A stretch of DNA of 62,200 bases, counting the filler. It is 9 parts of 9 records of this genome, joined end to end, with 100 filler letters (N's around TTAATTAATTAA, not from the genome) between each part and the next. Parts side by side here need not be neighbours in the genome. Positions count along the whole stretch, not along the records: positions 22,891 to 35,056 come from SRR7504441_3105; 8 more parts are not named here. The stretch is one strand, 5' to 3'. Every line of letters starts with the position of its first letter. Position 1 is the first letter of the stretch. This document shows positions 10,727 through 44,200 of the stretch, piece by piece. The notes under the pieces were generated by a model. That model was not told where the DNA came from and made no database searches. It was given only the letters and a program-made list of their open reading frames with translations. The position numbers and the translations under genes are program-made.

Positions 10727-10823
10727 CTGAACGTGCCACCATGCCCCCGCGCCCCTTCTAGGCTGGTGTCAGTTATATAAAGTCAGTTAGAAACGGCCGG
10801 AATCTCACCGGCCACACAATAAA

Positions 10824-12185: not shown

Positions 12186-14476
12186 TTAGCTGGTTAGTAC
12201 GGAACTCATTGTAGTCATGAACCGCTCCTTATAAGCATTCGGCGGCACACAAGACAGCCCATGCCGTTGTGTGCAGTGGATCACAGACTTGGCGCAAAAC
12301 TCGGCTCTCTTGAGCACATCGAATTGTTGCAGCATGTCGATCAGTCCAAGAGACACACACGGCGCCACCAGCGGCCCTCCGTCAGCAGCACACGCTTTAT
12401 CCCGGATCAGCCGCAACGGCCCTGCACCAGCCTGCTCCGGACTAGTCGCCACCACAACTAGCAGCGAGTAGTCCATTATCCCCCAGCCGCGCAACCAGGC
12501 AGTATCTCGTGCCAGTTCGGCCAACGTCGCCTGATGATCCGATGGATTCATCCGAATCGGCTCATCCAGATCTAAATCCTTGAGCTGGCCACCAGTGTCG
12601 CGCGCAGACCGGTGGACCCAAGAGCCTTTGAGATCGTAGCTGGTGAGTCGGAACCCAGCGGCAGCCAACTCGGCGGCAGGCAGCCCCCTGCTTACAGAGG
12701 CCATGACCACAAAGAAAACCAAGTCGCCTGCTGAGAAGGACCGTATCGCGTAGAGGCCAAACATCCTCGGGAGGAGCGTGTCGGGGCATTGCTCCAGATG
12801 CTCCAAGTAGCTGCCAGTAGCTCACAGCCGGCTCAGTTAGCAAGGTGCCTGGGCAGCAGCCGGAGCATGAGCTCAGCCTCCTTCTGAGAGAGGCTCTTAA
12901 CTAAGTATTGCTGGAAGCCCATCCGCAGTCAGAGCGACGCCGCGCAGGAAGGCGCTCACTGAGTCCTTTGAGAAGTAGAAGAACGAGCCAGAGCGAGAAT
13001 TGCTCATCTTCATCCGGAGTCCGTTGGATAACCAAGTGACCTGCGCCTCAATCAACCCCTTTGACACCACACGGCGCGCCTGGAGTGACTCGGTGTAAGC
13101 CGCACTCTCCACTCCAAACAGCCTACGGACCCGTGCGAACTGGCCTCCCGCAAAGTCCATAAAGTCGAAATCGCCTGGGCCGCGCATTAAAGCCGCTTAC
13201 ACACGGCGTACCGTAGCCGTAAACCTGTCCCACAAGCCGGGCCTTCCACGCACGAGTCTCAGCATGCTCCGTCTAAACCCTCAACCATCAGGCCTCGAGC
13301 TCAGGGGCAGGGCACCATTAGACTGTTGGCCATCAATGGCTCAGTCGGCTCGAACAGCATCCCGGTCCGGTCAGCTTCGCCAGAGGCCCGCCGTTTGAAT
13401 TCCTCTTGCCGCTCGATCGCTTCGATGATCCCTTTAGTGATGCACTCCATGCTGTCGGCCCTCAGCGCCGCGTCCAGCTCGTCCATCCCTTCAAGGCTGT
13501 CGAGCCGCCATGCACTGCCCACCAGCGAGACCCCTTGCGTGAACGGCGTGGGCATGCGGAGCAGCGCCACCCCAGTCCCGATCATGACGAGCTGCAGCGC
13601 CGTGCTGATTGTCCACACAAATGCCATCAGCCCGGGACTGGACGACTCTTCGCCCTTCTGCAGCTCAGCCGCTAGCTTGGGGTCGATGCAGCCGTAGAGG
13701 TTCTTAGTGAGCACCAGCAACATCCAGAGCAGCGACTCGCACAGCTGGGTGGTGAGGAATTGCACCCACATCCGCATGTACGCCCCCCTGACATCTGTAC
13801 TCCTGTGCAACCCCTCGCCAGCCACTCGACGTGCCAGCGACAACGTGTGCAGCGTGAGTCCGAACCAGGCCAAGGCCGTGAGCGACTCCACCCAGTCGCC
13901 CAGGCTTCTCAGGCTGGTCTTGCAGTCCAGCTTGAGCTCGCCGCAGAAGATCGACTCCCGCCGGCCGGGCTGAGCAGCCTGGAGCCCGACGAAGCTCAGC
14001 ACCATCAGCCAGACCACAAACCAGCATCGGGCCAGCGGGCCGCGCCCGGAGGCTTCGAACGGGTTGCGGAGGACCAGCTGCATGTGCGCCATCGTGATGA
14101 CCCCCCACGCAAAGATGGAGACGTAGCAGCCCTGCTCGAGAACGTAGTACGCCCAGCAGTGATTCTCCATCCAGCGATCTATCTGCTCTATCTGCCCGTT
14201 CACTATGAGCAGCTGCATCGCCAGCCCGATCAGCTGGGTGACCAGCATCGCCAGGCAGCGGTGCCACAGGCACACCCAGAAGGTCAGGCCCATAGTTTGC
14301 TTGGACCGGCGCAGGAACCCTTTGACCCGGCCGACCGCCAGCAGTGCCCACACCCACACCAGCACGGCCAGCAGCCCGCTCCCAAGCTGGACCGAGGCCA
14401 GCAGCAGCATGCTCGGCGAGTTCCAGCTGCCTTTCCCGGTTTCAGCTATGGCGGGCAGGCCGTGCTCAGCCGCCAT
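12186..14476 (-). CDS. GPCR-like multi-TM domain fused to a phosphatidylinositol-phosphate kinase (GPCR-PIPK)
   Basis: About 7 hydrophobic helices (13550-14420), then via 4 introns (including 12911-12959 and GC-AG 12811-12848) PIPK motifs SRSGSFFYF, YLVKS, TLLPRMFGLY, YDLKGS, IMDYSLL, IDMLQ. Confidence 0.85.
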
Positions 14477-14548: not shown

Positions 14549-14648
14549 NNNNNNNNNNNNNNNNNNNNNNNNNNNNNNNNNNNNNNNNNNNNTTAATTAA
14601 TTAANNNNNNNNNNNNNNNNNNNNNNNNNNNNNNNNNNNNNNNNNNNN
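14549..14648. other. Artificial contig linker N44-TTAATTAATTAA-N44
   Basis: Identical 100-nt spacer with stops in all six frames. Confidence 0.98.
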
Positions 14649-19212: not shown

Positions 19213-19312
19213 NNNNNNNNNNNNNNNNNNNNNNNNNNNNNNNNNNNNNNNNNNNNTTAATTAATTAANNNNNNNNNNNNNNNNNNNNNNNNNNNNNNNN
19301 NNNNNNNNNNNN
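19213..19312. other. Artificial contig linker
   Basis: N44-TTAATTAATTAA-N44. Confidence 0.98.
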
Positions 19313-22790: not shown

Positions 22791-22890
22791 NNNNNNNNNN
22801 NNNNNNNNNNNNNNNNNNNNNNNNNNNNNNNNNNTTAATTAATTAANNNNNNNNNNNNNNNNNNNNNNNNNNNNNNNNNNNNNNNNNNNN
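22791..22890. other. Artificial contig linker
   Basis: N44-TTAATTAATTAA-N44. Confidence 0.98.
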
Positions 22891-25800
22891 TGGGCTGATC
22901 CGGAAGTGGCCATTGTCAAAGCGCTCCGGATGATCCAGGAAGTGGGCGTGCTTGGCACTCAGCGCCATTGCAGTGCCATCCAGCGCGTCAGCATCGAACC
23001 GTTTGAGGGGAATGGTCTGGAGGCAGTCATTGCCCGATGCGAGTAGTCCCCAGAAATCTGTAGTGCTAGAGCCACCAGGAGCATAGCACATCATCGCTGC
23101 CAACATAAAATCTTGGGTTCGACATAAAATTGGATCGGGCTGTCTGGCAGGAGCGAGTTCAGTATTACCATCCTGTGGCCGAACCATGAGCAGACAATAA
23201 AGATGCTCAGCAATCGCTCCAACAGTTGGGTAGTCAAACATCATTGTGCTTGGCAATCTTGTTGTGCCGCCCAGCTCACGCTCTAGGACAGTCCTCAGTT
23301 CAATGGCTGCCAGCGAATCGACCCCACTGTCCATAAGTGGATCAGTAGTCTCGACTTCCACGGCAGCTGCTTCACGTACTCTGTAGGTGACCATCTCCTC
23401 CAAAGCTGCAAGCTGTTGGTCTCGACCCACGAGCCCCATAAGCTTTTTCGTCAGCTTAAACTCACCACCGCCATTCTGCTCTATGGGACTCGCTTGCGAA
23501 CTGGCATCTTGCAGCTTTAGTATGTTCTGTATACTTTGGGTAAGCTCAGTGTCTCCGATCATCAACGTGATCGGCGTTACTAGTACTGAATGGAGCGAGA
23601 ACCATGCACTAGACAATGCTCGGAGCCCAGTGGCAGGTTCAAAGCTTGACATGGCGTTTGCTTTGTTGGCCCTTGTGTCAGCACCAGATCTAGCTGCGTA
23701 CCCAATCTGCGACCAGATGCCCCACTGCAACCCCACAGCGGTCTGACCAAGCCCCTTGAGCCGTTGCACCAACGAATCGAGCGCAGCATTTGCTGAAGCA
23801 TGGGGTGATTGTCCAGGTGATCCCATTAGCCCAGCAACCGACGAGTAAACTGCATGGCAGTCGACCGATGCCGACTGAGTGAGCTTCACAAGGTTGGAAG
23901 CTCCATCAACTTTGGGACTTGTGACTTTCTGGAATCTAGCGAGCTGTTGGTTCTCAATGACGGCATCCGAGAGCACACCCACGCTGTGTACTAGGCAACA
24001 TAATGATGAACACTCCAGAGTAAGTCGTTGCACTTGGTTCAGCTGGATCATATTGCAAGCAACAGCCTGTACTCGGACGCAGGGCCCACGATGCAGCTGG
24101 TTGAGAGTATTGTCCGACGGATCTTTGACAGTGCCTTGACGCGATGTAAGTACTAACTGCAACACACTGTGACGCTCCACAAGCCAGCAAGCTGTCGCCA
24201 GGCCAACACCGCCCAGTCCGCCTGTGATGATAAAGCACCCAAGAGATGTTGGAACTGCTGCTATTTGCCGCCCAAGCGCTACGGGTTGCATTGCCCTCAG
24301 TATAAAGACAGTCTGACTATCCAAGATGCCAGCTTCGCTAGCCTCAGGCTGCAATGCATTTGGTACCAGCTCGAACCCAGTCACATGAAACCACGCCCGC
24401 CACTGCTGCCGTGACTGTGGGCCAAAGTCGCGCCCATCGCTGAAAAGCCACCAACCCTCTGTTAGGCCCCATGTGCAGTCTACCACTGCGGTGTGCGTTG
24501 TCTCAGTAATTTCAGAGAGCACCAGCATCCCTGCTGGATGCAATAGCCGATGAATATTGGTAAGCGTGTCTCTCAAGTCTCTTGTAGCATGCAACACGTT
24601 CACGGCAAGTACAGCATCGAAGCTGTAGGCGGGGAACCCCTGCTGGACCGGATCAAGCTCAGCATTGAAAATGCCGTAGCGGACAAATGGGTACTGGCCT
24701 TGCCATCGCTGGCGCGCCCTCTTAAGAAATACATCCGAGAGGTCGGTGAACCAGTACTCTGAGGAGGACGAGGGCAGCAATGGCAGTACACTCGTAGTTG
24801 TGCCACCGGTTCCACCACCAATCTCGAGCAGTCTGATTTCTGCTTGTTCGCTCACGGCATCATTGGCAAGGACCTCGATTGCAGTGGCTGCTAGCTTGTT
24901 GTAGAACTGGGTTCCCGGCGAGTCTGCATACTCTGCTTCTGCCTCGGCCATGCTGCCACCTGGGAAGAGGAGTTCCAGTGGATCTTGCTGGCCCGTGAGA
25001 ACGGCTCCCAGTCTTGGCCCGCACCTGCACACCTCGGCTCAAAACGATTCAAGAATAAGCCCACCTGGAGAGGAGGGCAAGAGAGGTCTCCACCTCCGGG
25101 TACTCTGAAATCACCTGCTTGTAAGTGAGTGAAGTTGAGCGCCACTCCTTTTCATTACTCAGCCTTGCATGCCAGCGCCGCCACAGCTTGCGGTGGTGCT
25201 CATTGCAAACCTCAGAAGCATCCATTAATTCCATGGCCTGCCAAAGGTACCGTCGAGCTAGAGCCTCCTGGGCCACTGCACAGGCACCCAGGCGCTCTAG
25301 TTCAAGTCGCTGACTTGCTGTCAATGCTGCCATGGCCTTTGCTGCACGATTTGGGATCTCAATGGCCATAGTGCTGGTGTATGGAGTCGCCGAAGACCCT
25401 GCTATTGCTGCAAGGACCGCCATGCTTGTCACCAGCCTGCGGCCGAATAAAGAGCCGAGTTGCATGACACACTCTGGCTCGTCTGCCGCCCTCCCAGCGA
25501 GTCTGTCATCTCCTGTGCACAAGTCGAGGCATTTGAGGGGGAGTTCTGGATGTTCGATCCGCACTGAGCGGGTTAGCCCCCAGGCAGAGGCCTGCAACCA
25601 CCCACACCCCAACCGCGCAGAGTGATGGCCGCCTGCAACTTGTGAGTGCATCGTCAGTGTAGATAGCGATGGATTTGCATTCGATCGAAGAGCGGTTTGA
25701 ACCAAGAGAAGCACATCGCGCAGCACATCCTCAACAGAGACTGCAATCTCAAGTGCACCTGCGTACTGAATGCTTTTACTCGCTTTGAGCAAATGAACTA

Positions 25801-28800
25801 CATCAACAACCGCCAAATCAGAGTGAGTGAGCACACTTGATGTAATGGGATTGATGTGCTTGTCTTCCCTAATGCTGATCCACTCGGTCTGCCACAAAAT
25901 GCGAGCCTGCTTGTGTTTGACATCCTCACCGCATCTGGAATCCAACCGACCCGCTTGGAGATAAGTGTTCCGGAGACTCCTTTGGTTATGACCTTGTGAG
26001 ACCAGTTCTGGGAGGAAATTGGAATTACTTGGGTCTTCAAACGATGAATCGCGCAGTGCTGCGCTCTCATCTGCAGAGTCTAACCCAGGGTCTCTTAAAG
26101 TCACGACTGCATGCTGCGTCCACTCGCTGCGTCCCACACTCGCCTCGATGCTGCACAGCTGTCCTGTGTCACTTACGTAAGCAACTACCCGTATCATCAC
26201 GGGTATTGTACCATCTAGCACAAGCATTGCTATGAACTGGGCCTTGGCCACGGCCAACTCACCATCAGATCCTGCCAGGATGGCTAAGCAGAGGTACCCG
26301 GCACCAGGCATCACAGGCGTCCACCCCACACGGTGCTGAGCCATGTAATTGCAGCTCGGTGCAGGCCAGCATCGCTCATAGATGGCTCTAGACTGGTCTG
26401 GTGGGGCTACTGGGCGCAACATGGGTACTTGGGTGCCTGAAGACTCGGTGATGTCCAGCCATGGAAATGCTTGAAGCTTGTATTCCAGGGAAAAACACAT
26501 TCCGTAAGCTAAGTCGGAATGACCAGATGTTTTGGTGAGCATCTTTGATAGCACAGCGTGGCTGTTGGTGCCTGTATACCCAAATGAACTTACCCCGCCG
26601 ATCTCTGTCTCGAGTAGCACCTTTCGATGCGCGACAACATCCTGCAGGAAGAAGGCGTTCACCGCCCCGAGGTGGGGATTAATCTTTCGGAAGTGAAGGT
26701 TCCCTGCAGCGTGACCTTGCAATTCCAATGCACTCTTACACAGACTTGCAAGCCCGGCTGCGAATTCTGTGTGGCCTATTCTGGTCTTAAATGCCCCCAG
26801 GATCCTCTGTTTCCCAATGGGCGCGCGTTGCAATGCCTGAATTTCAATTGGATCCCCCAGGGCAGTACCCGTACCGTGTGCTTCAACAACATAATCTTTA
26901 TATAAATGTGAAGAGGTCTGTGCAAGTGCAGCCAGAACCACTTGAGTCTGTGCTGGGCCGTTGGGAGCCATCAGACTGGCACTTTGTCCATCTTGATTAA
27001 CGCTCGATCCTTGTAAAAAGCATATACTCTGTACAAGCATATCTTGATTAACGATTACAGCAGCACAGCAGCATTCACCACGACCATAGCCATCTGCATG
27101 GCCATCAAACGTCTTGGAGCGCCCGTTGGGAGCCAAGGCTTGTAGAGCACACATGGCAGCCCATGGGCCTAAGCCCAGCATGAGGTTGACTCCAGCCACC
27201 ACTCCCAGACTGCATTGCCGCTTGGCTAAGCTCATGCTGGCAATGTCGAGTGCCACAAGCGAGGCAGAGCATGCTGTGTCGACTACCAGTGCGGGACCTT
27301 TCAGCCCGAGTAGATACGAGATTCGGCCAGCACTTGCTGCTGCATGTGACCCGTGCGCAGAATATGTTGACAGTGCCCTATTGGAGGTCATGCTCAGCCA
27401 TTCGGATCCACCAAAGCCTATGAATACACCAGTGTCCGAGTCCATCAGGGACCTACGCACCAACCCAGCCTTTGTCATGGAAGAGAAAGCAATTTCCAGT
27501 AAGATTCGATGGTTTGGGTCTGTGACCTTGACTTCAACTGGGCTCATCCCAAACCACCGAGCATCAAAGCATTCGCTACTCGCAACGAAATAGCCGTGTT
27601 TAACATACAACAGAGTGGTCGGGCCATTCAGTGACTGGGCGCCTTCGATAGGTTGACAGTGGTCTTCAGCGCCATGCAGCAACATGGAGATACTTGCTCG
27701 AGAGGTGGTAGCAGGAGCTCGGCTATCAAGGGACAGGATGCGTGTTTCATGCGGGAATGCACCCGCGCCTTGGCCAACTGTCATCCCTTCTGCGTTGTCT
27801 GTGATCGCTTTACGCACCAGGTGTTTAATTGTCCTCTCCATTGTTGGATAGTCGAAAAGCAGGGTCACAGGCACCTCCTGGTTGGAGATGCGCTCTAGCT
27901 CCCGTGCAATAGCCACAGCTTGATTTGAGGTCACGCCAAGCTGGAGAAATGATGTGGCCATAGTTTCGTCTCTAGGAGCACGCTCTGGTCCTAACACCTT
28001 TGCAAATACGGCCAGAATCTGCTGCTGTGTGAAGGTGCCAGCTTGCTGGTCTTTGGATGCATCCACGGAGCCTGAAGGTACGGGCGCACCCATTTCAGTG
28101 CGATCTACTCTAGCCATCAACTGGGATGTCTGGTTGTACTCTGGGACCAGGCTCTCCAACATGTCAACCTTATGAACAGTCGACTGGCTGACGACGAGGT
28201 GGACATTATCCCCACTCACTGACGTGCCGCTCAAGCTCCCAACGAGATGCGAAGTAGGATCAAGTCGCTCCACGTGTGCCACTGGAACACACACCCCACT
28301 ATGGCGCACAAGTTCGACAATTGGCTTGCAAACATGACGCTGCGCAGCCACCACGCGGTGCTGCAGCGTCATTGCCGTGGTCAATAGTGCAAGTAAGCCA
28401 GACGCAGCCAGGGAGTGTCCCATCGACGCTTTGTGACCCAGTAGGATCAGTTTTGTCCCCCTCTGCTTCTGGCCAAGCGCCTGAGCGACACCCTCTACTT
28501 CGGGTCCATCCGATGGATTGGAGCCAATCGCATGTAGATGTGTCACTGCGATTTGCCGCGTCTCAATCCCGGTCCCAGTGACTGCAGCGATGGCTGCCTG
28601 TGTTATCTCCTTTGGATCAGTGAAGCTTAGAGGCAGGAGAGTGCTAGTGCGAGTAGCACCCCATCCTGAAAGGTTGATATGTGCGGCCTCCGACGCGACA
28701 TTGCCCTGCAAGACTATGGCGGAGGCGGCTTCACTGAATACCAAACCATCTGCAGACTCGTCGAATGGTTGACAAGTACCGGACTTGGACAAGATTCCGC

Positions 28801-31800
28801 CTGCAAGCAACGAGAGTGCCATATCAGGCTTGAGTTTCAACGCGACTGCCCCTGCCAGAACGGTAGTGCACTTGCGCTGTCGAATGACGTGTGCACCATC
28901 CAGTACAGCAAGATAGCCAGACGAGCAAGCTGCTTCCGTGTTGGAGCTTGGGCCTGTGACTTTGAGTGCAGCAGCAAGCACACGCGAAACCATGTACGAT
29001 GCAAGTGGCAACATGAAGTCATGCGTGTCGACGCCCGTAAATATGCCTACTGTCTGGAATAGTAGACATCCATGTAGACTGGTAAGACTCTGCTGGATTG
29101 TGTCCATTAGTACTATCATGTGCGCATCTAACATTTCTGTGTCCAATGAATTCACTGCGAACGAAGACTTGTCCTCGGGTAACAGCTTATCCAAGTACAA
29201 ACCTGCGAGAACACCAGACGAAATCCCTCGGCACGCTTGTATCCAACGCTGCGGTATGACTCCACTCAACTGGCTTTGATGACACAAGACAAGTGCATCC
29301 CAGAACAGTGTGAGCTGCTTCATATCCCCAGGTAGTCTGTGGCCTATTGCAACTACGCTGATGGGTATATCATCCTTATTTGCTAACACCGCCGGTTGCA
29401 TCGCCTTGCTACAGTGAAGGAGATCACGAGAGGATGAACTCACTTGAGCCGAGAGAGATGCTGTAATGGCCCGAATGGTGGGGTGCTCGATGGCAAACGA
29501 CGTTGGCAACGTCAGTCGGAGCTCGCGCTCTAGCGACGCAACTAGTGCGAACATGGCGAGTGAATCGAGGCCAATATCTTCACGCAGGGACGCATCTAAA
29601 TCTAAGCACACCATTGAGCAATTGACCAGCTGAGAGACTTGACCCACCACCAGAGACTCTAGAGAATAGTCACTGAGCAGGATTGCATCGGGGTGTTTCA
29701 GAATGAGTAGTCCGGAATCTTCAGGTGTCCGAGGTTGAAGTATGCTGTCTATTGATTCACCGCTCGTCAGCCATGGTTTGAGGTTTGCCTCGACATCGGC
29801 TGGCAGGCTGTTCAAATTGCCAACCGACAGCTCAGGATCTAGCCACTCTGACTTGAGTGAGTCAACTAACGCTGCAAATGGATAAGGTAACGGGTGCATA
29901 TTGCTGTCAATCCGCTGCTGCAGCATGTGACAGGTGTCGCACCACGCCCTGGCATTTTCGCGCACAAACTCTGACGGCGTGAATCGACGATGATAATCTA
30001 TGCAACGATCGAGAACTTGATTCTGCAGTACCTGGTACAGCTCTGGTAGATGCTCAAATAACCGAGAAGCGCCATCCATGCTATCACCAAGCGTAAATTC
30101 GGTGTTTGAGAACTGAGGCAAATCAGCTTCCAGCAGCTCGCGCGAAAGGTCAGTGTCCTGTAACAGACGGAGAACAATCTCTGCCGAGAACTTGAAACCT
30201 TCTAAAGCACTGGAGCCAAATGGGCTCTGGTGTCCTCTTACGTCATCCAAAATGGCCTCAGCAATGCAGAATAGGTTGTGGTCGACCATGCCGAACCCGT
30301 TCATGGTGGACGTACCAACGATGTCGCTGATCTGGCCGTTGGTAGCAAACCCCACACATTTGATCAGCACACTGGCTGGCAGGGCCTTTAACTCGACCGA
30401 TGTAGGGCTAGCATGAAAGATCGTGCTTGGAGCGAGCCTCGATACTGTACCTGTCTGAACGCTCACCAACTTGAGATGGTGTCCAATGTACCAAATGTCT
30501 GACACACTGATGGTGTGCCTCGGAGGAGTAAACACCCCCCGTGCAGCCTCAACGGGCAGCGGTGCTCCAACAGCCTGATGGAGGCCGTGCCATGCTTGTA
30601 GCACGCGTAGAGCACCTGGTGGGGCGTGTTGCAGCTTCTCGCTGTAAGGTCGAGCAAAGTTGAGGTAATCCACAATGAGGGGACAGACCCCACCAATTCT
30701 GCGGCATAGCACACCAACACGGACGGCACCTTGTTCAAGGGCAGTTCGAGTATTTTCCACCGCAAAGGCGCCCATACCAACAATCACAACATCTTGGTCT
30801 TGAAAGTCGACTTCCTCCACCTCACGTCCAATCCCATAGCATATGGAGCCGCCAAAGCAGTCTTCTCCAGGATAGGCCAGTCGCCTTGGATGGCCAAGCC
30901 GTCGGTTCACACACACAATAGCTGCATCACAGTGGATGATTTGGTTGCTCCCAGTGTGGAGATTGACGCATTTTACCTGGTATGCCAGCTGACCCTCATG
31001 GACCTTTTGGATAGTCTGGACATCGGTATTGAGCCACAAGCAAGCCCTCATTTCAGTCGCAACAGCATGAAGATCTGCCAACACCTCGCAGGCAGTTGAA
31101 TGGTCCGAGTTGGGTCGGTCGGGTCGAGTGGCAATACGGTACGCCGGTTCAGAGGTATTCACCCGTGATGTTCCTGCAACACAGTGGTCAGGTGAACACA
31201 CACAAGCATGCCAGCAGGTGTCACTGTTTGCATGGTGCAGCCAAACGCCACCAACTCCTGCAGTACGTTCAAGGATGCAGACTTGCAGATCCGCCTGCCT
31301 GAGCCGACGTGCTACAGTTAGACCTGCCACGCCTGCTCCAACCACTACGACCTGTGCTTTGGGAGGCAGCCGCTTGTCGTCCTTAGGAAGCCAGCTAGGC
31401 CATGTCGCATTCGAATCTGTCTGAGCGGTAATAATTTCTGCCAACTGAAGAGCATTGACATCGAAGAGTTGCTTCAGAGGACAGCAGGACAACTCAGGCC
31501 AGCTGCTAGTATAGTCCGAAGGCGGCTGTATGCTGTCAGTCCAAATGTCAACGATTGGAAGGACACTTGGATCGGTTTTTGGAGCAAAGTAAAGAGATTT
31601 GATGTTACTGGAGCAAGCCACGGCATAGAGGCAGATCGGAGAGGCGAAGGTGTACTTGCGAGCCAGAGCCTGTGCAACACCATATGCCCAAATCGCACCA
31701 GTTTCCATTCCAACAAACACATTTGATACATCACTATATGCTGACACATGACTAACTAATTCCTCCGTCTGATCTTTGTTAAAGGCTGCAGCATCGCTGC

Positions 31801-34800
31801 ACCGGATAGCCAAGACGTCAAAGGACCGTGCACCAAGTGCCTTTGCCGTGACCCCCAACCAGCTGAGGCTCTCAGTTTCTGTGAAAAAGATAAAGCAGCG
31901 AGAACTAGGCTGGACAAGACCACTGTAGCCTCCAGACACTCGCCTGACTACACCTCGATGCCCAGGCCATGCCCAAGGAATCACAGCGTCCATCTCTGCC
32001 TCGGCCTCTAGCGTGGTGTCCCAGGCAGCAATCTGCTTGCCACACCATGCTTCGGAGTGTGCATCACCAGGTGTCCACCAGGTGAACGCTTGTTGCTGGT
32101 ATAACACCATGTATTTCACATCAAGCACGAGGGCAGAAGATAGGTCAGCAGTCATGAGTGACTTGCCCAGCATAGCATGACAGTTTGTACCAGTATACCC
32201 AAAGGAGCTCACTCCTGCTGTATTGGCGAGGATGCCACTGTTCTGACTCGGCAGCACCACGCAGAAAGCTTCCAGATCCAGATATGGGTTGACCCTACTC
32301 AAGTGAAGGTTGGGGGGCACCCAGCTCAGCTGCAGCCCCACCACCACTCTCCCGAGCCCTGCCAGCCCAGCTGAGTACTCCGTGTGACCAGTCCGGGTCT
32401 TCAGCGCTCCAAGCGCAGCGGGAGTTTGCTCATCGCCACTACCAAGCACGCTATGTAGTGCCTCCACTTCGACTGGGTCACCCAGGGCTGTGCCCGTGCC
32501 ATGAGTCTCCACTGTGTGCTTGGTACTGGCTTCTTTTCCTACCATGGCTAGCTTGATGACAAGCTGCTGTGCTGGTCCGCTTGGAGCTGCAAAGTTGGCA
32601 CTGCGGCCGTCCTGATTAACCCCGCTTCCAGTCAGCACCACAACATGCGCTCCAGAATCACTGTGATAGATCTGCAACAGCGCTGCAAAGCAACCCTCGC
32701 CCCGACCGTAACCGTCCGCCGAGCCATCAAAAGTCTTGCTCTTGCCGTCTAGTGCCAGCGGCAGCCCAGGATCCCGCACCCAGGCCACCCAGTGTGGATG
32801 AATGTTTACTCCAGCACACAGCGCCGCCATGCCTCGGTCCATTCTAAGGCACTGTCGAGCTGCGTCCACCGCCACCAGTGAGGACGAGCAGGCTGTGTCA
32901 ATCGCCAGGCAGGGGCCCCGCAGTCCTAGTGTAAATGAGATCCGGCCAGCAGCAGCACACGCCGATTTCCCGTGGTTGCTAAACACTGTGTGATCACGGC
33001 CATTGACCAAGTTGACCCAAACTGACTGGCCAAAGCCGATAAACACCCCGAGCTCGGCCTGCATCAGCGTGTGCGTAGACCACCCACCTTGAACCAGCGC
33101 CCTAAATGTGGTCTGGAGGAGCAGCCGCTGGTTGGGGTCAGTGGCCATGACCTCAGCAGGACTCATGGAGAACAGAACAGGATCAAACAGCTGAGCATGC
33201 TGCACGAAGTGCCCTGGAAGCAAAGTGCTATCGAGCGGCAGCGTTGCAGGATAGGCCCGGTCAGACGGTGGAAGGCATAAGGGATCATTACCAGTGCAAA
33301 GATCTGCCCAGAATGCAGGCAGGGTAGAGCAGCCGCCTGGACTGGCACAGGTAAGCGCAGTAATTGCACAGCACTTGACGGAGTTGGGACTAGTACCTGA
33401 CACAAGTCCTATGCTCGGCTGTTGACCGGCAGGACCTGCGGCTGCACAAGTCCTATGCTTGGCTGTTGCGCAGCAGGACTGCTGAGTGAGGTCTATTTGG
33501 TGCATTTGACCGAAATACTCAATGATTCCTTGGAGGGTAGGGTGAGTAAAGATGAGTGTCTGGGGTGTGCGGACACCAGTCATTCTCCTCAGGTCGTTGT
33601 TGAGGCGTACAGCCTGACGTGACGTCAAACCAGCGGCCATGAGCGGCATGTCCAAGCTGATCCAGATACCAGTGATATCTTTAACCACCTCACGTATTGG
33701 CTGGTGCACTAATGGATCTTGCACCAAAGTTACTGGTTCGTGGCTGTGCAATGGCTCACTGGTGGCAGCTGGAGGCTTCGCTGGGCTCTTCGCCTGTTTT
33801 GTGTGTGACGACACTGGACTGAGCAGAGGCAAGATTGCATGACTTTGCTCGTTCTGTTGTCTCAAGATGATATGCACGTTCTGGCCCGAAGCAGAGGTGC
33901 CGTTTATTGACCCGCATAGCTCTACCTGGCTGTCAAGTATGGCAGCGCGGCCAACAGGCAGAATTAGCGAGGAGGATCCAGATATGATTTCTATGCACTT
34001 TGTCACACCCATGTGAACTGGAACAACATGATGATGCATCACAAGCGTCGAAACAACGAGCGCTACAATCCCGGCAGCATGCCCACTGTGTCCAATATTC
34101 GCCTGCAGCACACAGCAAAGCTCAGTCAGTCATGAAAGCCGCTCAACTGAGCCTCACCTTATGTCCCGCTAGAACCAAAGATCCTTTAGATGTCGCTGTT
34201 TCCTGCACCCGGGTAACAGCAGCAACTTCTGGATCATCTGAAGGAGGCGATCCCATGGCATGCAGATGCATGAATGAGAGCGGGCCTCTTTGAGGGCAGC
34301 GGGCTCTTCCTAGTGCTTCGAGCATAGTGCAAGCCATGCAATCAGGGTCGGCGAATCCTAGTGGTAATAGTGAACTCACGTATCCCAGAGTGGACGTGCA
34401 GATTTCGCCACACACTACCATGTTATTGGTCGAATGGGCTAAGCGGAAAGCAGCACAGCCCTCACTCCAGACGGCTCCATCCGCAGCACAATCTAAGGGA
34501 CGCATTCGACCGGATCGTGAGGTTATAGCCAATACATCTGGGGATACAGATTTCATATGGGTGCTATCCCTCGGAATCCGCAGTATCCCACCAATCGCTG
34601 CTACGTCACATTCGCCTCTGAGAATTGTTTGTAGCGCTTCGTGGATTGCGATGTAGCCAGAAGAACATGCCGCATCTGCGTTAGAGAGAGGGCCCCCGGC
34701 ATTCAGTTTTGATCCCACAATCCGGGACATGAGGTAGGTAGGTACGGTATCCACAGGTCCTGGCGCATACGAAGTAAAAACACCAATCTTAGTCTCCGAT

Positions 34801-35056
34801 GTAGCCGTGCACTCTGCTGTCCTTTGCATCACCTCAGCCAGAAGTTGCTCACTCGAGGCATGCAAATCATCAATAAGGCCAATGCTTGGCATGGCGTTCA
34901 ATCTAGAGGATGACAAGTAGTTGTTTGCTGCTGCAAGGGTTGACCACAGTAACTCCAAGCTATGCACCCGTGCTCCCAGAACACATGCCATTTTACAAAT
35001 GGATGGGAGAGATAGATCTGCAGCAACTTGAAGAGGCAGCTGGGAGGCTACAGGAG
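22891..35056 (-). CDS. Modular AT-less type I polyketide synthase (about 4000 aa seen, open at both ends): KS*-ACP-KS-TE-like-FMO-ACP-KS*-ACP-KS-DH-psiKR-MT-KR-ACP-KS
   Basis: Three ORFs joined by GT-AG introns 34103-34157 and 25025-25064, plus in-frame intron 31174-31224; DTACSS/HGTGT/GH KS motifs; ACP GLTS, GLDS, GVTS, GVDS; MT LEIGGGTGG; KR ITGGLGGVG; FMO GAGVAG and GMGAFA. Confidence 0.93.
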
Positions 35057-35156
35057 NNNNNNNNNNNNNNNNNNNNNNNNNNNNNNNNNNNNNNNNNNNN
35101 TTAATTAATTAANNNNNNNNNNNNNNNNNNNNNNNNNNNNNNNNNNNNNNNNNNNN
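35057..35156. other. Artificial contig linker
   Basis: N44-TTAATTAATTAA-N44. Confidence 0.98.
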
Positions 35157-38100
35157 GCGCAGCAGGCCCGGGTGGACGGCGCGCTCAAGAGCTTGAAGGA
35201 GCTCGAGGCGAAGCTGGTTGCAGTGCAGCAAACGGTGCGGCGAGCGGCTTGCACCGGGCTGACGGGGCGGGACAGGCGGACGAAGGGGCCAGCCAGGCGG
35301 AGACCGACGCGGGCGAGGCATCCCGGACGGTGGCGGAGGCCAAGTCGCTCGAGCAGGAGGCCGAGAACAAGGCCAGTGACACCACCCGGCTGCTGGCTGC
35401 CAGGAACAAGCTGATGGCAGCTCTCGCCAGAGCCGAGGCCCGAGCAGCTGAGGCCAAGGCCACAGCCGACAAGGCCAAGAAGCTTGCAGGGAGCGCCCAA
35501 GCCGAAGTGGCTGCAGCGCATACCGAGGTTCAGAAGAACAAGAGTCAGCTCGCGGATCTGAAAGCCGCGGTCGACAAGAAGCGAATCGAGGCCGAAGATT
35601 CTCAGAACAGGGCCCGCAAGGCCCAGATGGATGCGAGCGAGCTGAACACCGCGGTGGAGCAGGAGAAGCGGGCGCTTGCCGAGGTCGAAACTGAAGCCGC
35701 GGTGAGTGCACGAGAAGTGCGTGCCGACCAAGAGGCCCAGCTGGCTGCAGAGACGCAGGCCGCTAGGATCAAGAAGCAGCTTGAACGCAAAGAGGGCCGC
35801 GCCCAGGCGGCTGCGGAGAAGATGGAGAAGAAGGCCGCCGAGGCGACAGCCGAAGCCGCCAAAGCCGACCAGGAAGCGGCAAAGTTTGAGCAAAAAGAGA
35901 AGGAGGAGGTCGACGCGGCTGACCTGAGCAAAAGGAAGGCTGTGGCTCAACTGGAGGGGTCCGCAGAGGGGCAAGAGGCCAAGCTTGCTAAAGCCGAAAA
36001 GGACAAGGATCAGGTGGTGGAAGCCACTCAAGCCAGTGTGACAGCCGCCGAGGCCGAAGTGAACAAAGCGAAGCTTGCAGCCGCGGCAGAGAAGAACAAG
36101 GTAGCGGCGGCGCTCGCCGAGAAGGAGGCCGACTGCGCTAAAGAGCAGGTTGCTGTCGAGCAGCTGGACGAGCAGCAGAGCTCAGTATCCCACGACAAAG
36201 TGCAAGAGCTCTCCGACGAGAAATCCGCTGAAGCCGCTGAAGCTGAGGCAAGGACCGCAGCCGTGGCCGCCAAGGCGAGCAAGGCGTCAGTGGATACCGA
36301 GAAGGCGGTGGTGGCGCAGGCAGAGCAGGCCAAGGAAAAGCAACTGCAGGCCGCAGCCGCGCAGAAGGCCGCAGCCGAGCAGGCCAGCGCAGCAGCCAAC
36401 AAGGCATCGGCGCAGGCTGCCGTTGCGGCTCAGGCGGCTCAGTTGCAAGAGGAGCTGGCCAAGTCGCGTACCGCAGCTCTGGAGGGCCCCAACAGTGCGT
36501 TCAAAGCAGCAGAGGCCAAGGCGGCGAGGCGGACTGCAGCTGAAGAGCAGTACAAGGCTGGGGCACTCGAGGCTGCCAAGCTTGTCAAGCAGCGCGAGGC
36601 GTCTTCTCAGAAGGCCAAAGATGATCTGGCCGCTGTGGCCACACAGTCAATCGAAGTGGCGAGCGCGCTCTCCGAGGCCGCGGCTAAAAAGGAGAATCTG
36701 AAGAGCCAGCTGAGCCAGGCTGAGGGCAAGCTCACTGCACTGAAGGCCCAGGAGAAGATCGCCCAGGAGAAGGCCAAGGAGGCCGCCAGCGAGGCTAAGC
36801 AGGCTAGCAAGCTGCCCACGAAGACAGCTCAGGCACTGGACACAGAGAAGGAACAGCGGGACAGACTGCAGGCCAAAACTCGCGCACAGGAGGCTGATCT
36901 AGCTACCAAAAAGAGAAAGCTTGTGGTAGCAGAGCAGGAGCAGAAACAATTGAAGGACGAGCAGCGTCGTGTGGAAGCTAAGCTCGTGGACGTTGCCAAG
37001 AAGGCCAACAGCGAGAACGAGCTGCTTATGAAGGCCCAACTGGAGGCTAGGCAGGCGGCCAGCGAGAGCCAGATACTCTCAGCAAAGGTGGAGGCCGAGG
37101 AGATCAAGCGGTCAGGGCTTGCAGATCGAAAGGAGATCAAGTATCGCAGTTACAAGCAGGCGCAGGTGTTACTGGCAGAGGCAAATCAAGAAGCGAAGCA
37201 TGCGCGGCAGAAGGAAGCGGAAGTCGGTGAGAAGGTTGCCGCAGCCAAAGCCACCCTGGAGCAGCTTGAGAAAATGCTGCAAGAGAAAACAGGCAAGCAA
37301 GCAAAGGATATCAAGACGCTGGACGAGGCAGAGGAGCATTTGCAAGGTCTCGAGAGTATCCGGGACAAGGCTGTTGCAGCACAGCAGCAGGCAGAGGCTG
37401 CTCTCAAGTTGAGCCAAGAACAGGCCAGCTCGCTGAAGCAGCAGGCAGAGAGGCTGGAGGCTGCAATGGCTGAGCAGCGTAAGAAGCTGCTAGAGGCAAG
37501 CAAGCAGGAATCGCTTTCTGAGGATGAGGCCAAGCGGCTGAAGCAGGGACTTGAGCAGCTCAAGCAGCAGGTGGCTCAGACCCGCGAGCAGGAGCAGCTT
37601 GCGCTCACTCAGAAGGCCAAGCTGCAGGCACAGAAGGAAGCAGATATCGACAGAGTCAAGGAGCTCCAGCAGCAGATGGCCCGCACCAAGCAGCAAGCTG
37701 AGCTTGCCAAGCATAAGGCGGCCGAGGCAGAGCGCCAGATGAAGGCCAAGATGGAAGCTGACAAGCAGGCAGTCGACAAAGCCAAGGTAGCTCTTCGGAA
37801 GCAGGCAAAAGAGGGTGCGGACTTGGAGAAGCAGTTGGCTGGGCTCAAGGGCGCCGTAGCTGAGCAGCGAGGCAAGCTGAATAAGCTCAAGGCAGAGGAG
37901 AAGCAGGCGCAGGACGAGGCGTCGCTTCGTCAGACTCAGGCCAACCAGGCGGCTAAAATGGAATCCAAGCTGACTCAGCAGATGCCAGGCGCAGCGGCTA
38001 GTGCGGTGAAGGCAGACGCGGAAGCCGATTTGGTGTCTGTCAACCAGCAGCTGCAGCAGCTAGAGTCACAAGCGAAAGAAGCCTACCAGAACACTGTGGA

Positions 38101-40214
38101 CCAAGAAACATTCAAGACGGGCAGCGCATTGACTCAGAACAAGCTTAAGGCTGAGACCCACCAGCGGTCATTGAAATACCTGAAGCAGGACCTGGAAGCA
38201 GCAGACAAGCAGCTTGCCGAAGCACGCCAAGCGATGCAAGAAATCCGTGGGGAGCGCAACAATGCAAATGCTATGCACAAGGAGGAGCGAGCCAAGGAAA
38301 AGAAACAGGCAGAGGAGGCGGCAAAGGAGGCCGGTAAGACAGAGGAAGCGATCAGACTCATAGCAAGTGAGTACGCTGAGGAGGAGAAGAAGCGGAAACG
38401 CCGGATGGATGTAATCAATGGCAAGTTGACAGCTCAGCGGGAGGCGAAGGCCGAGGCTGAAATGGCCAGGCAGAAGGCCAACGAAAAGATCAAGCTTGAG
38501 ACGCGTGCGTTGGACGCACTGAAGGCTCAGAATCAACAGCTCCTTCATGACTCCAAGGTGGCCAAAGCCAACGCCAAAAAGAGCATGGCGACAGCTATCG
38601 AGGAGGCCAAGGTAACCGCTGCCGACAAGACAGCAGAGATCACTGGAAAGGAACCTCCCAAGGAGGAGCAGGCCTCTCCGGACCAGAAGAAGGCACTGGC
38701 AGATGCCCGTCTGAAGACGGAAAAGCTAGCCAAGGAGGCAGCAGCTGCCACCGAGGAGTGCAATCAAATGAGTGCAAAGGTCAAGGAGGCGCAAGGGGAG
38801 CTGAACAAGCTCGAGACGAAGCTGAAGGCGATAGAGGGAGTGATGGGTGAGCTCCAGGGTAAGGCAACCGCGCTGACCAATGATGTTCTGGAGCGACAGC
38901 AGAAGCAAGTGTCTGATTCAGTTGCGGCTGGTGAGGAAGTTGCCATGAAGCAGCAATCACAAGAGTTAGAACTTGAGAGCAAGTCTGTCCAAAAGAAAGA
39001 GAAGGACGCCGAAGCGAAGGAAAGAAAGATGGTAAAAGAGGCCAGTAAAGCAAAGGTGAAAGCAGCAGAGGCTGCTGACCAGCTGACCAAAGTGGAAAAA
39101 GAAGCCAGCGAAATGCTGAAAAAGGAAGGCCAGGCAGAAGGAAAGGCCATGCAGATGAAGCTATCACGGGAGGATGAGAAATCGCGACAGGAACTGATCG
39201 AGAAACAGCTGAAGGATGTCATGAAGCAACTCAAGAAGGCTGAAGACAAGGAAGCACAGGACAAGAGCAATGATGATAGCTCAAAAATGGAAGTCAGCAA
39301 GGAGGAAGGCCAGGAAAATGTGGACAAAGCACGGACTAAGAAGCTTGAAAAGGATGCAGCGAAGGCGCAGCAGGACACTGAGTCCGCTCAAAAGCAGGTT
39401 GAAAAGGCGAGCATGGCCCTAGCAGAAGCCAAACGCGACGAACCTGTCACTGACGCATTGGTAAAAACCGCTGCCAATAAAGTCATCGAGGCACAGAGCG
39501 TCGTTTCTCAGACTGCGACGTCCTATGAGGCCGCAAAGAAGGCATCCTCGTCGGCTGATCAAATCCTTAAAGGAGAGCAGGACCAGCTTACAGAGGCCAA
39601 GGCAAAGGTAGATGATGCTGAACGGGAAGCAGCGAATGTCGAGAACGCCAGCAAAGAAATGTTCAAGGCCCGCGACAAGGCCCAGAGTGAGCTCACAAAG
39701 GCTGAAAAGGACAGCGACAAGCACGATGAGGCAGTGAAAAAGGCTCAGGCCGACGATTCCAACGAGGCTCAACAGATTTCAAACGAGAATTCGCAGATTC
39801 GTATACTCAAGAAGCAGATCTCTGGTCAACGGGAACAGCGCACACTTGCAACCAAACAGGCCGATAGGATGCAAGCCGAGGCTAGAAATGACATGAAACA
39901 GGCAAACTCACTCGATATTGACGTCAAGCAGAACGTGGCAAATGTTGCCGGGTTCAAGAAGCAAGTTGCTGCCGCGGATGCAGCTGAGAAGGAGGCACAG
40001 CTCCAGAAGAAGGTGCAGGCAGCTGCGCTGAAGAAGGCGCAGCGCAAGCAGAGCAGCCAAACTTCTGCGCTGACAGATGCCAAAAATAAGGAAGACATTG
40101 CAACAGATCAGGAGCAACGGGCTGCCTCTGAGCTGAGCGTTGCCAAACAGGCTGTGCAAAACGCAAAAGCAAGCGTCAGCGAGACTGAAGCAGCAGCCGC
40201 TGCTGCAAAGAAAG
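35157..40214 (+). CDS. Very long A/K/E/Q-rich coiled-coil protein, truncated at both ends
   Basis: More than 1600 codons open; intron 35235-35275; almost no Pro or aromatic residues. Confidence 0.85.
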
Positions 40215-40314
40215 NNNNNNNNNNNNNNNNNNNNNNNNNNNNNNNNNNNNNNNNNNNNTTAATTAATTAANNNNNNNNNNNNNNNNNNNNNNNNNNNNNN
40301 NNNNNNNNNNNNNN
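40215..40314. other. Artificial contig linker
   Basis: N44-TTAATTAATTAA-N44. Confidence 0.98.
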
Positions 40315-41484
40315 AGCAATAGCAAGGCCTAAGCAAGGCCCGAGTTTAAAAAACTCGGCGAGAAACTGCGCATACTTCTGTACGTGCACGTTAAGTGGTG
40401 GCAGGACAAAGTACGAGGCTACGTGCTGTGACCCGTCTGAATACCCGACAGTGACTCTGGCGCGGCCATGAATCGCTCCACGGACCGCCACGGCATAAAA
40501 TCCCCGCTGGCCAGCAGGGACTGGACTCCCAAGGATGAGGTTTCCGGATGGGAACACGCTCGTATTTTGGATGTGCTGCCCTCTAGGAGGCAGTAAATGC
40601 AGAAATGCCTGCATGTCCGTCGCTATGGCGTAGCTTGGTACTGCTCGCATCACAGCAAACCCAGCGGAGATCAGAGTGTCCTCTTTGGCTCTCACAGACG
40701 ACGAAGCGAGTAACCTGTAGCTGAACACCATCTGCTTTCCAGGGGCGAGCACAGCTGAACTTGGCTCCACCCACTGGCTTCCGGTGGCGTTGGCCCATTC
40801 ATTCTCCGAGTAAGCCTTTGTGAGAGAGCTAATCTCATAAAAGCTGCCACCGGCGGCCTCCGTGAGGGGCCGCCACGCTTGGAACTCGGTGCCGGCTTCG
40901 GGGACAACCAGAAGCACCGGGCCTAGCCCAGTCACCCTCGTGACCGACACAAACCCGTGATGCGACCCGATCGAGGCGTCGACGAACGAGCAACTGCCTG
41001 CCAGCCCGTCCAGCGTGTTGGCGGCGCCCTCGTGCACCGACATGTCTGCAAACACCATTGAGGCTCCGAACCCGCCCAGCTCGACCGGGCCGGACCCGTT
41101 GTTCCCGAGCACAAACCACATCCGGATCCCTTCGCCCCCCTCTGCCGCCGCGAAGTGCCTCTCGAGCGTCAGCGACAATCCGGCCTCCTGGAAACACAGA
41201 GACGCCGACGCGAACTCCCCACGGGCCGGCGGGTCAGCAGGGACCACCGACTGGGCTGTGGCCGAGGACAGCGTGCTGTACGGGCCAGCGCCCACCCGGC
41301 GGGCACGCAGGGTCACGTCGCCCAGTCGGTGGGACACGTGGGACGATCGGTTGGGCGCGAGCTCAAACCTGTTGAGCTGGAGGGAGCCGATGGTCTGGCG
41401 GTCGGCGGTCAGCTGCACGCTTATCCCGCCGGCCTCGAAAGACACGGCCCGAGCTGCGGCCACAATCGCAAGCAGACTCGCCAT
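40315..41484 (-). CDS. Secreted DUF5695-like putative glycoside hydrolase, 3'-truncated
   Basis: Signal-like MASLLAIVAAARA; HRLGDVTLR, GFVSVTRVTGLGPVLLVVP, KAYSENEW, GRARVTVGYSDG motifs. Confidence 0.7.
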
Positions 41485-41555
41485 GCTCGGTCCCAGTGCG
41501 GCCTGCATTCTATGCCGTTATAAATCCGTTGATGTAATAACGACCAGGCTCGATC

Positions 41556-44100: not shown

Positions 44101-44200
44101 NNNNNNNNNNNNNNNNNNNNNNNNNNNNNNNNNNNNNNNNNNNNTTAATTAATTAANNNNNNNNNNNNNNNNNNNNNNNNNNNNNNNNNNNNNNNNNNNN
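44101..44200. other. Artificial contig linker
   Basis: N44-TTAATTAATTAA-N44. Confidence 0.98.

Follow-up and report, generated by a model that had tools for sequence, protein, structure and literature searches.

The window analysed here is a stretch of DNA of 62,200 nucleotides, within which the contig SRR7504441_3105 (positions 22,891 to 35,056) carries what is, judging from its domains and introns, part of an acyltransferase (AT)-less modular polyketide synthase (PKS) gene from a eukaryote. We found that module 2 of this PKS holds, in line between an intact ketosynthase (KS2) and an acyl carrier protein (ACP2), a didomain composed of a thioesterase (TE)-fold domain, termed X, and a flavoprotein domain, termed Ox. 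By its conserved motifs, Ox is a predicted intact member of a distinct and uncharacterised clade of flavoproteins of the class B type, with two dinucleotide-binding domains, and it is expected to use flavin adenine dinucleotide (FAD), NADPH and O2. The balance tips slightly towards Ox acting as an on-line oxygenase of the β-ketoacyl intermediate tethered to ACP2.

A flavoprotein didomain between KS2 and ACP2

The features of the module, in the order of the polypeptide and with residues numbered as in the protein P0001, are as follows (pLDDT, predicted local distance difference test):

32300-33367, minus strand: KS2, the ketosynthase of the didomain module (Pfam ketoacyl-synt at 255-486 and Ketoacyl-synt_C at 498-610 of P0001; alignment)
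31904-32299, minus strand: post-KS2 linker, mostly of low confidence in the model (pLDDT 27-44, model residues 1-50)
31406-31903, minus strand: X, a lidless α/β-hydrolase fold domain, P0001 743-908 (model m737dfe591be0, VIA-align, Foldseek)
31225-31372, minus strand: Ox, first coding part, with the FAD Rossmann motif GAGVAG and GGVW, up to ...HHAN
31174-31224, minus strand: in-frame phase-1 intron of 51 nt, GT..AG (sequence, homologue alignment)
29852-31173, minus strand: Ox, second coding part, to P0001 residue 1426 (homologues match query 231-737)
29435-29662, minus strand: ACP2, approximate limits (Pfam PP-binding, at three stretches in P0001)
28040-29362, minus strand: KS3, a strongly divergent ketosynthase (Pfam, KS tree, alignment)

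KS2, X, Ox, ACP2 and KS3 share one reading frame on one contig. KS2 keeps its catalytic set (Cys of DTACSSS, His of HGTGT and His of GHTE), and the phosphopantetheine Ser of ACP2 is Ser1523 of GLDS (29561-29563, the motif starting at 29572). The linker at 31904-32299 gave no family match and no Pfam match at E ≤ 5.

The flavoprotein spans 29852-31372 overall. A sequence-only reading of this DNA had placed a dead thioesterase and a flavin monooxygenase at 29870-31920, essentially the limits computed here, and every motif that it quoted was recovered on the minus strand where it had put it (starts: VVVGAGVAG, 31348; GGVW, 31252; TSRVNTSEPAY, 31171; YPGEDCFGGSICYG, 30874; VVIVGMGAFA, 30790). The FAD-type GxGxxG is GAGVAG at residues 931-936, its three Gly being conserved in 99-100% of the aligned family, while the NADPH-type GxGxx(G/A) is GMGAFA at 1118-1123, followed by a conserved RR at 1143-1144. 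The second coding part further displays SRVNTSEPAYR, NRRLGHPR, FGGSICYG (at a degenerate fingerprint position), GMGAFAVEN..RTALE, CRR, CVGF, FGSS and a C-terminal helical part. An alignment of 83 sequences, mostly of bacterial members, has 102 positions with a conservation of 85% or more, and the window copy retains 90 of them, including all the cofactor motifs. The Pfam FMO-like family matched with 37.3 bits against a cut-off of 22, over the first ~200 profile positions only.

The didomain (P0001 690-1440, 83 sequences) was modelled with confidence (mean pLDDT 84.9, predicted template modelling score 0.87), and the model has the class B monooxygenase fold. All of the Foldseek matches listed from the PDB are class B monooxygenases (E 2.7e-19 to 1.3e-16), including DiatB, PAMO, bacterial and ancestral flavin-containing monooxygenases (FMOs), steroid monooxygenase and the Ox-ACP of LbmA from the lobatamide PKS. 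The family profile matched the same kinds of structure (steroid monooxygenase, E 1.5e-21; PAMO, 3e-21; DiatB, 1e-20; LbmA-Ox, 3e-18; FMOs, about 1e-15). In VIA-align, run as a second look at Foldseek's top 1000, DiatB scored Z 24.2 (382 residues), LbmA-Ox Z 22.4 (405), and FMOs and Baeyer–Villiger monooxygenases (BVMOs) Z 20-21 (380-405). The ESM Atlas neighbours of a bacterial family member were all FMO-like. Thus, the two-Rossmann flavoprotein proposed from the letters alone stands on both dinucleotide motifs and on nearest structures that include class B monooxygenases. In overall fold, type I BVMOs (PAMO, steroid monooxygenase, CHMO) and FMOs (ancestral FMO1/2/5, bacterial) resemble Ox, and they have GGxW and both Rossmann domains in common with it; however, they are only 14-19% identical to it, their fingerprint is not kept, and over the C-terminal half there is no sequence alignment. 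Beyond them, Ox has the extra helical C-terminal part and the N-terminal TE-fold domain.

The flavoprotein domain is interrupted by the intron at 31174-31224, which the sequence-only reading had also removed. In addition to its GT..AG ends, it has a CTGAC 13-17 nt before the AG, and a similar CTGAC is found in the obligatory intron at 34157. Left unspliced, it would insert 17 residues after ...GGVWLHHAN and before TSRVNTSE, whereas its removal gives ...AN-R-TSRVN.... The insertion is absent in 82 homologues, including bacterial proteins and P0152, a transcript-derived relative from EukProt labelled Telonema subtile, and the spliced reading aligns gap-free. The inserted residues are also the sole internal stretch of the model with pLDDT below 50 (pLDDT 42). 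The gene calls P0005 and P0135 of relatives stop 10 and 9 residues past the same 'AN', as expected if an intron at that site cut both short.

X, when modelled alone (183 residues, 32-row alignment), formed a six-stranded α/β sandwich with pLDDT 85.5. An exhaustive VIA-align comparison over 48,161 representative chains returned thioesterase entries in 15 of the 19 best rows, among them human TE2 (Z 16.7, root-mean-square deviation (rmsd) 2.8 Å, 158 residues), TesA of M. tuberculosis (Z 16.6) and Pks13-TE (Z 15.0), with thioesterase domains of nonribosomal peptide synthetases (NRPS) and PKSs at Z 13.5-15.1; Foldseek found TesA (E 4e-6) and also RedJ and RifR. With the type II and PKS/NRPS thioesterases (human TE2 4XJV, TesA 6FVJ, RifR, RedJ, Pks13-TE), X shares the core (Z 14-16.7, rmsd 2.8-3.5 Å, 154-167 residues); in contrast to them, it has no Ser nucleophile, no Pfam Thioesterase match, little of the lid and no detectable sequence similarity. 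No Pfam family, PF00975 included, matched P0001 680-923 at E ≤ 5, and the best PDB sequence match had E 0.75. At ~165-183 residues, X is shorter than true thioesterases (210-280), with the lid mostly missing. In the X model, strand 64-70 and helix 73-86 flank the motif GMETG (codon 807, starting at 31711), which thus occupies the very elbow of the strand-turn-helix, with Glu809 (31703-31705) in the place of the Ser nucleophile. The residue here is E, E, G and K in the four eukaryotic X sequences, so that no nucleophile is conserved; ahead of the last helix, the window has a DVNA loop where P0135 has THAG. X is predicted from its model to be catalytically dead as a serine hydrolase.

The origin of X is suggested by the free-standing members of the Ox family. 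First, an N-terminal domain is present in nearly all of the free-standing bacterial ones, and each of the 55 members that we compared has an N-terminal extension of 125-150 residues. Second, hhalign of the four eukaryotic X sequences against these 55 N-domains gave a probability of 62.6% (E 7.3e-5) over 54 columns, a helix-strand-helix-strand core. Third, BLASTP coverage was 85-89% for 14 of 120 listed proteins, reaching into X. A word-based search with X alone recovered 0 of 1194 longer-protein candidates, a weak negative in that it also missed the known relatives P0135 and P0152. Homology of X to the N-terminal domain of the free-standing bacterial enzymes is thereby moderately supported. 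As the X core aligns with the bacterial N-domain, the didomain looks inherited as a unit. The bacterial version has ~138 residues, as against the full TE fold of ~165 residues in the window, and X looks like an enlarged form of it, with an origin other than that of a decayed release domain. The dead thioesterase of the sequence-only reading is therefore right as to the thioesterase-type α/β-hydrolase fold without its Ser nucleophile, but X does not resemble a release domain that has decayed in place. Most likely, X came along with the flavoprotein by inheritance and acts as an adaptor, either structural or for docking.

Relatives of Ox and their genomic contexts

An exhaustive HMMER search over 1.84 billion representatives, of which the best 150 matches were listed, gave 695 family members at E ≤ 1e-3, of which 302 pass a threshold of 1e-10 and 113 one of 1e-30. 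Taken with the FMO-like Pfam score, the size of this family indicates that the domain is not a chance match. The window Ox matched PKS-embedded copies with E down to 4.9e-101, and free-standing proteins of ~610-612 aa at 33-37% identity over ~500 residues (E 4e-85 to 1e-71); the ~612-aa proteins are mostly from metagenome-assembled genomes of the Desulfobacterales type. The shared conserved motifs mark the Desulfobacterales flavoprotein and fusion proteins of Amoebophrya and Symbiodinium as the true family of Ox.

For a survey of contexts, we took 56 non-redundant proteins of at least 1000 aa, which were annotated with the window's domains as queries and together have 58 Ox domains. Ox follows a KS within 330 residues in 21 of the 58; in 14 of these an ACP comes next, in two another KS, four have no downstream match and one ends there. 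A further 14 of the 58 are C-terminal in single-module proteins, 472-917 residues past a KS, and the remaining 23 are in other or truncated contexts, three directly after a ketoreductase (KR). The in-line KS-Ox-ACP members in protist PKSs come from Prymnesium, Aureococcus (with Aureococcus anophagefferens proteins among the family members) and Telonema, where the P0152 transcript has KS-X-Ox in one open reading frame (ORF), the arrangement being 49-57% identical to that of the window. The Prymnesium parvum protein P0281 (KAL1499068.1, a hypothetical protein of 5756 aa, with P0002 and P0003 as fragments) has two Ox domains: the first in KS-Ox-ACP-ACP, and the second after an unassigned ~420 aa and before an unassigned C-terminal ~540 aa, a position that suggests a possible role at chain release.

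A second context recurs in bacteria and protists. The Desulfobacterales operon (5763-12713 in locus L001, and the same region in L002-L014) comprises an AT-KS-ACP(-ACP) gene, a MetE-like gene (PF01717) and the gene for the 612-aa flavoprotein, which in L001 occupies 10001-11839. The 14 loci are those of relatives of one member, 63-98% identical, and so represent one clade; in all 14, the MetE-like gene is immediately upstream of the flavoprotein gene, and the AT-KS-ACP gene precedes it in each of the 12 with full upstream DNA, while in a 13th the contig boundary leaves the final 46 codons of that gene. Acyl-CoA thioesterases of the 4HBT type lie downstream in four of the 14 loci. In one Amoebophrya and one Symbiodinium protein ('PKS40'), Pfam showed the order AT-KS-ACP-MetE-like-Ox, and precomputed Pfam lists have the MetE-like family together with a KS in seven proteins; the list for a Hondaea protein has AT and KS, with Ox, and no MetE-like match. 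Such AT-KS-ACP-MetE-like-Ox fusions of ~1600-2300 aa (P0287, P0289, P0304, also P0297, P0299, P0300 and P0303) occur in Amoebophrya A120 and A25, Symbiodinium and many metagenome proteins, as a Rosetta-stone fusion of the bacterial operon.

In the loci and fusions that we examined, the family members are always beside or fused with a KS/ACP unit without reductive domains. Since the same three units form an operon in bacteria and a single polypeptide in protists, the flavoprotein would work with such a unit, and the gene order offers independent evidence that the two are probably functionally tied. These members differ from the window copy in that their systems have a single module, an AT of their own and a partner of the MetE-like type, whereas the window copy is part of a multimodular AT-less PKS with no MetE-like domain. 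We found no published function for the Desulfobacterales AT-KS-ACP/MetE-like/flavoprotein operon.

The surrounding gene and the window

The remaining features of the gene and the boundaries of the contigs are these:

22891-35056, minus strand: part of an AT-less modular PKS gene, which runs off the contig on either side (spacers, Pfam domains, frame map)
34103-34157, minus strand: obligatory intron of 55 nt, GT..AG, splitting the KS1 motif ...LAGHK-ANIGH... (sequence, frame change)
25025-25064, minus strand: obligatory intron of about 40 nt, GT..AG, ahead of the cMT-KR-ACP-KS exon (sequence, frame change, Pfam on the next exon)
14549-14648, 19213-19312, 22791-22890, 35057-35156, 40215-40314, 44101-44200, 51298-51397 and 57814-57913: spacers

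From Pfam and the frame map, the domain order is (KS1 C-part)-ACP-KS2-TElike-Ox-ACP-KS3-ACP-KS4-DH-...-cMT-KR-ACP-(KS5 N-part), where DH is a dehydratase and cMT a C-methyltransferase; no acyltransferase is among the Pfam domains of the PKS on the contig 22891-35056. The coding strand is minus, with an uninterrupted frame of 3026 codons (25049-34129) flanked by two more coding stretches in different frames. The frame shifts are explained by the short GT-AG introns at 34157-34103 and about 25064-25025. KS4-DH and the cMT-KR-ACP of the last exon (22891-25024, minus strand), which also holds the beginning of another KS, make up a C-methylating, reducing module interrupted by the 40-nt intron.

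KS3 is 24% identical to KS2 and nonetheless keeps the Cys (EAACSSG) and both His (HAIGS, MGHS). The GRISxxLGLxGP stretch is missing from it, and an ACP follows directly, with no processing domains between. In a tree of 45 KS domains (25 pre-Ox, 9 post-Ox and 11 others, with nine near-identical cluster members excluded), KS3 is the lone, longest branch. Both the atypical KS3 and the eukaryotic, intron-bearing PKS of the sequence-only reading are thus upheld, the latter by the short GT-AG introns, the Pfam domains and the plainly eukaryotic proteins on other contigs of the window (XPG nuclease, mitochondrial carrier, MORN-repeat protein).

The window contains 16 runs of 44 N, paired around the 12-mer TTAATTAATTAA (spacers N44-TTAATTAATTAA-N44), which identifies it as nine contigs chained end to end. 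Physical linkage to the didomain therefore holds for 22891-35056 only, a contig of 12.2 kb bounded by the spacers at 22791-22890 and 35057-35156. ORFs or features that span spacers are artefacts, such as a '1721-aa ORF' at 35105-40270 that begins within a spacer. The contig 35157-40214 (plus strand) is filled by a single long open frame whose product, Ala/Glu/Lys/Gln-rich and coiled-coil-like, matches nothing in Pfam; this composition accounts for the strong purine skew of the contig (AT skew up to 0.46). On the contig that follows, and unlinked to the PKS, a DUF5695 family protein (E 4e-57) lies at 40315-41517 (minus strand).

The 22891-35056 contig is covered by 43 pieces from an independent DNA run, and 17 of these are alike to 99% or more. 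Small parts of the stretch (shares of 0.05-0.18) are contained in 20 runs, and four of these runs were examined in detail: an RNA-library contig lies on 31356-31560 with one mismatch, and a polyA-library contig on 30415-30566 with none. Other short pieces from the RNA runs (32-36 nt, three mismatches, loose ends on both sides) look like sequence of other organisms and were set aside.

Proposed chemistry, alternatives and implications

Module 2 has no KR, DH or enoylreductase (ER), and KS2 has its Cys-His-His set intact; hence, ACP2 should carry a β-ketoacyl thioester. We propose that KS2 would condense a malonyl unit loaded in trans, that the product would stay a β-ketoacyl thioester on ACP2, that the flavoprotein would oxygenate this tethered intermediate, and that the chain would next be passed to the highly divergent KS3. 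As to the type of reaction, our first choice, a tentative one made by analogy, is a Baeyer–Villiger insertion giving a malonyl ester, as with OocK; the best profile matches being BVMOs, the OocK precedent and the very divergent next KS speak for it. The on-line oxygen-insertion module of the sequence-only reading keeps its architecture, a didomain in one frame between an intact KS and an ACP, while the Baeyer–Villiger fingerprint that insertion calls to mind is absent.

The bacterial precedents offer partial parallels. According to the accessible portion of PMC6174933, to which what follows on OocK and PedG is limited, OocK oxygenates β-keto thioesters from a KS-DH*-ACP module to give malonyl esters. 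PedG/OocK-like BVMOs resemble Ox in acting during chain growth on the β-keto thioester of a module without active reductive domains, and they are followed by a KS that stands apart phylogenetically (PMC6174933). Unlike Ox, which is in line and without the fingerprint of the PAMO/STMO type, they are free-standing and act in trans (PMC6174933). LbmA Ox of the lobatamide trans-AT PKS (PDB 8ODW) is closer in architecture, being a class-B-type flavoprotein within an AT-less module with an ACP next; however, it is bacterial, 15% identical to the window Ox (Z 22.4, rmsd 4.1 Å, 405 residues), and scores no better against it than PAMO, STMO or DiatB. It is no closer a match to Ox than ordinary FMOs, BVMOs or even thioredoxin-reductase-like proteins. 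Reportedly, LbmA-Ox forms an oxime on a glycine unit and inserts no oxygen into the chain. Its crystal (8ODW) contains ethyl glycinate, per the entry title. Of the precedents invoked for Ox in the sequence-only reading, oxygen insertion by OocK holds (PMC6174933), but they are misquoted in part, as OocK and PedG act in trans and the LbmA-Ox crystal holds ethyl glycinate. MupA/OocM/CalD and FLX, as far as the source texts at hand go, share with the model the flavin-dependent oxygenation of ACP-bound β-keto intermediates in AT-less assembly lines. MupA and OocM belong to class C, being FMN-dependent TIM-barrel enzymes of two components with a separate reductase (PMC10952193, in the part available); the two-Rossmann fold of Ox, in contrast to this TIM barrel, places it outside class C. 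The FLX of the Prymnesium PKZILLAs, placed in modules 6, 9 and 11 of PKZILLA-1, is the one reported in-line flavoprotein in a protist PKS, for which the portion of the preprint at hand cites class C precedents only.

Several observations weigh against the reading of Ox as an on-line oxygenase. FMOs and BVMOs carry a fingerprint of FxGxxxH followed by W or Y, with the FMO form FxGxxxHxxx(Y/F) and the BVMO form FxGxxxHxxxW(P/D), and the aligned rows of PAMO, STMO, FMO5 and garlic FMO display it. In the window neither form is kept (F1092-G-G1094-S-I-C-Y1098-G-I-G-R1102): Tyr1098 occupies the His position and Arg1102 the Trp position, the family consensus being FxGxxxxG, with r and d there in the profile. 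The fingerprint that the sequence-only reading had assigned at this place is accordingly degenerate. The 12 lost conserved positions cluster around PECW, a near-invariant family motif missing from both the window and P0152. No NCBIfam model reaches its cut-off on Ox, and the profile alignment to solved monooxygenases is significant over the first ~180 profile positions only. In VIA-align, with 280-302 residues aligned, bacillithiol disulfide reductase reached a Z of 23.3 and thioredoxin reductases one of 20-21; since two-Rossmann reductases reach equal Z, neither fold nor Z alone proves oxygen chemistry. The Ox family itself is uncharacterised. A conserved 'post-oxygenation' KS type that would support the oxygenation model was not found in the 45-KS tree: the post-Ox KSs are scattered over at least three places with no single clade, and KS3 groups with none of them. 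Given this scatter and the long branch of KS3, we draw no conclusion from the KS tree. Lastly, in the four runs examined, no RNA-library contig crosses the intron at 31174-31224 and no joints were reported, so that the two contigs lying on the X and Ox regions are no proof of transcription or splicing.

If Ox is an oxygenase, it might instead attack C-2 of the β-ketoacyl thioester via a flavin hydroperoxide, as a class B analogue of the MupA/OocM step, and so set up the α-hydroxy groups or single-carbon deletions of protist polyketides. This second choice we hold to be rather unlikely. It draws on the residues that follow GGxW: the YPG...D stretch with Asp66 of PAMO is absent there, the family reading AN-x-(T)SRVN(T)SE, and Asn991 of SRVNTSE, 91% conserved, aligns at this FMO-type position with the Asn of INTSKE in ancestral FMO5, the alignment to PAMO being offset by two residues (Asp66 of PAMO and Asn78 of bacterial FMO are named in PDB entry titles). 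It also draws on the missing BVMO-type motif and on the β-keto thioester on an ACP, the substrate context that MupA needs (PMC10952193, in the part available). In the preprint text at hand, the in-line 'FLX' flavoproteins of the PKZILLAs are given α-hydroxylation, with pass-through modules next, and Prymnesium encodes members of the Ox family; however, FLX would be at most a candidate member of the Ox family, and the cited α-hydroxylases are class C TIM barrels of a different fold. We know of no class B enzyme that performs C-2 oxygenation of a β-keto thioester.

Improbable in our view, and more so than C-2 attack, is that Ox is no oxygenase and that the PKS recruited it for a step that is reductive or involves thiols, as a NAD(P)H reductase using flavin or an oxidoreductase of the disulfide type. 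Such a role would fit the VIA-align scores of bacillithiol disulfide reductase (23.3) and thioredoxin reductases (20-21), which equal those of the monooxygenases, the weak NCBIfam matches that include glutamate synthase beta, TrxR and YpdA, the missing class B fingerprints, and the MetE-like domain (Cobalamin-independent synthase family, PF01717) as the ancestral partner. That family acts on thiols. Yet these reductases align over 280-302 residues, as against 380-405 for FMO, BVMO and LbmA-Ox; the Foldseek matches listed and the best profile matches are monooxygenases; no CxxC pair is seen among the family-conserved positions; and GGxW and the FMO-type Asn motif are conserved.

Still less credible is that the didomain is an inactive relic and a mere structural spacer in the module. 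X is without a nucleophile, whether lost or never present, PECW is lost in the window's clade and the fingerprint motif is degenerate; however, the 90 of 102 conserved positions retained, all cofactor motifs among them, the confidently predicted fold and the arrangement kept in Telonema at 49-57% identity speak for a working domain. A chimera of the assembly, or a eukaryotic PKS to which contaminating bacterial DNA was joined, might be suspected in a patchwork of short contigs with bacterial proteins as the nearest free-standing homologues, but is scarcely believable given the spliceosomal-type intron within Ox itself, the single frame that leads from KS2 by way of X, Ox and ACP2 to KS3 within one contig, the 43 pieces from an independent DNA run (17 at least 99% alike) and the same domain order in the Telonema transcript.

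Flavin oxygenases that act on the growing chain have been established for a few bacterial trans-AT PKSs (OocK, PedG, LbmA-Ox, MupA, OocM). In protists, as far as the source excerpts go, carbon deletions and a Baeyer–Villiger step (DTX-4) were deduced decades ago by isotope labelling, with the enzymes unassigned. In the literature covered, which included few subscription journals, we found no description of a class-B-type flavoprotein domain inside a protist PKS, and no account of a fingerprint-less class-B-like clade with a TE-fold N-domain, of a recurrent protist KS-Ox-ACP module or of the AT-KS-ACP/MetE-like link. A word search for flavin or monooxygenase gave no mention in the accessible portions of PMC4661987 or PMC12190008, and no pertinent publication was found for 8ODW or DiatB. 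Thus, while in-line or trans flavin oxygenases in bacterial trans-AT PKSs and an in-line flavoprotein in the PKZILLAs are already known, this clade and this module type appear to be new. Were FLX to belong to the Ox family, the eukaryotic occurrence would already be in print and α-hydroxylation would gain weight.

With this finding, KS-Ox-ACP becomes a definite type of module, intact and recurrent, in PKSs of haptophyte, pelagophyte, telonemid and further marine protist origin. Its flavoprotein represents a distinct clade without the classical fingerprints that is genetically bound to a KS/ACP unit in bacteria too, and X is a further case of a hydrolase scaffold reused within an assembly line. 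A bolder and rather speculative proposal is that the Ox family might be the long-postulated in-line flavin oxygenase of protist PKSs, inserting oxygen in a Baeyer–Villiger reaction or starting a single-carbon deletion, and that the AT-KS-ACP/MetE-like/flavoprotein unit might be a new and widespread one-module pathway, from which multimodular protist PKSs borrowed the oxygenase with its dead-TE adaptor. If so, one conserved unit would exist as an operon in the Desulfobacterales and as a fused protein in Syndiniales, Symbiodiniaceae and others. In either case, the free-standing Desulfobacterales enzyme and its two operon partners offer a tractable bacterial model for the chemistry of the protist module.

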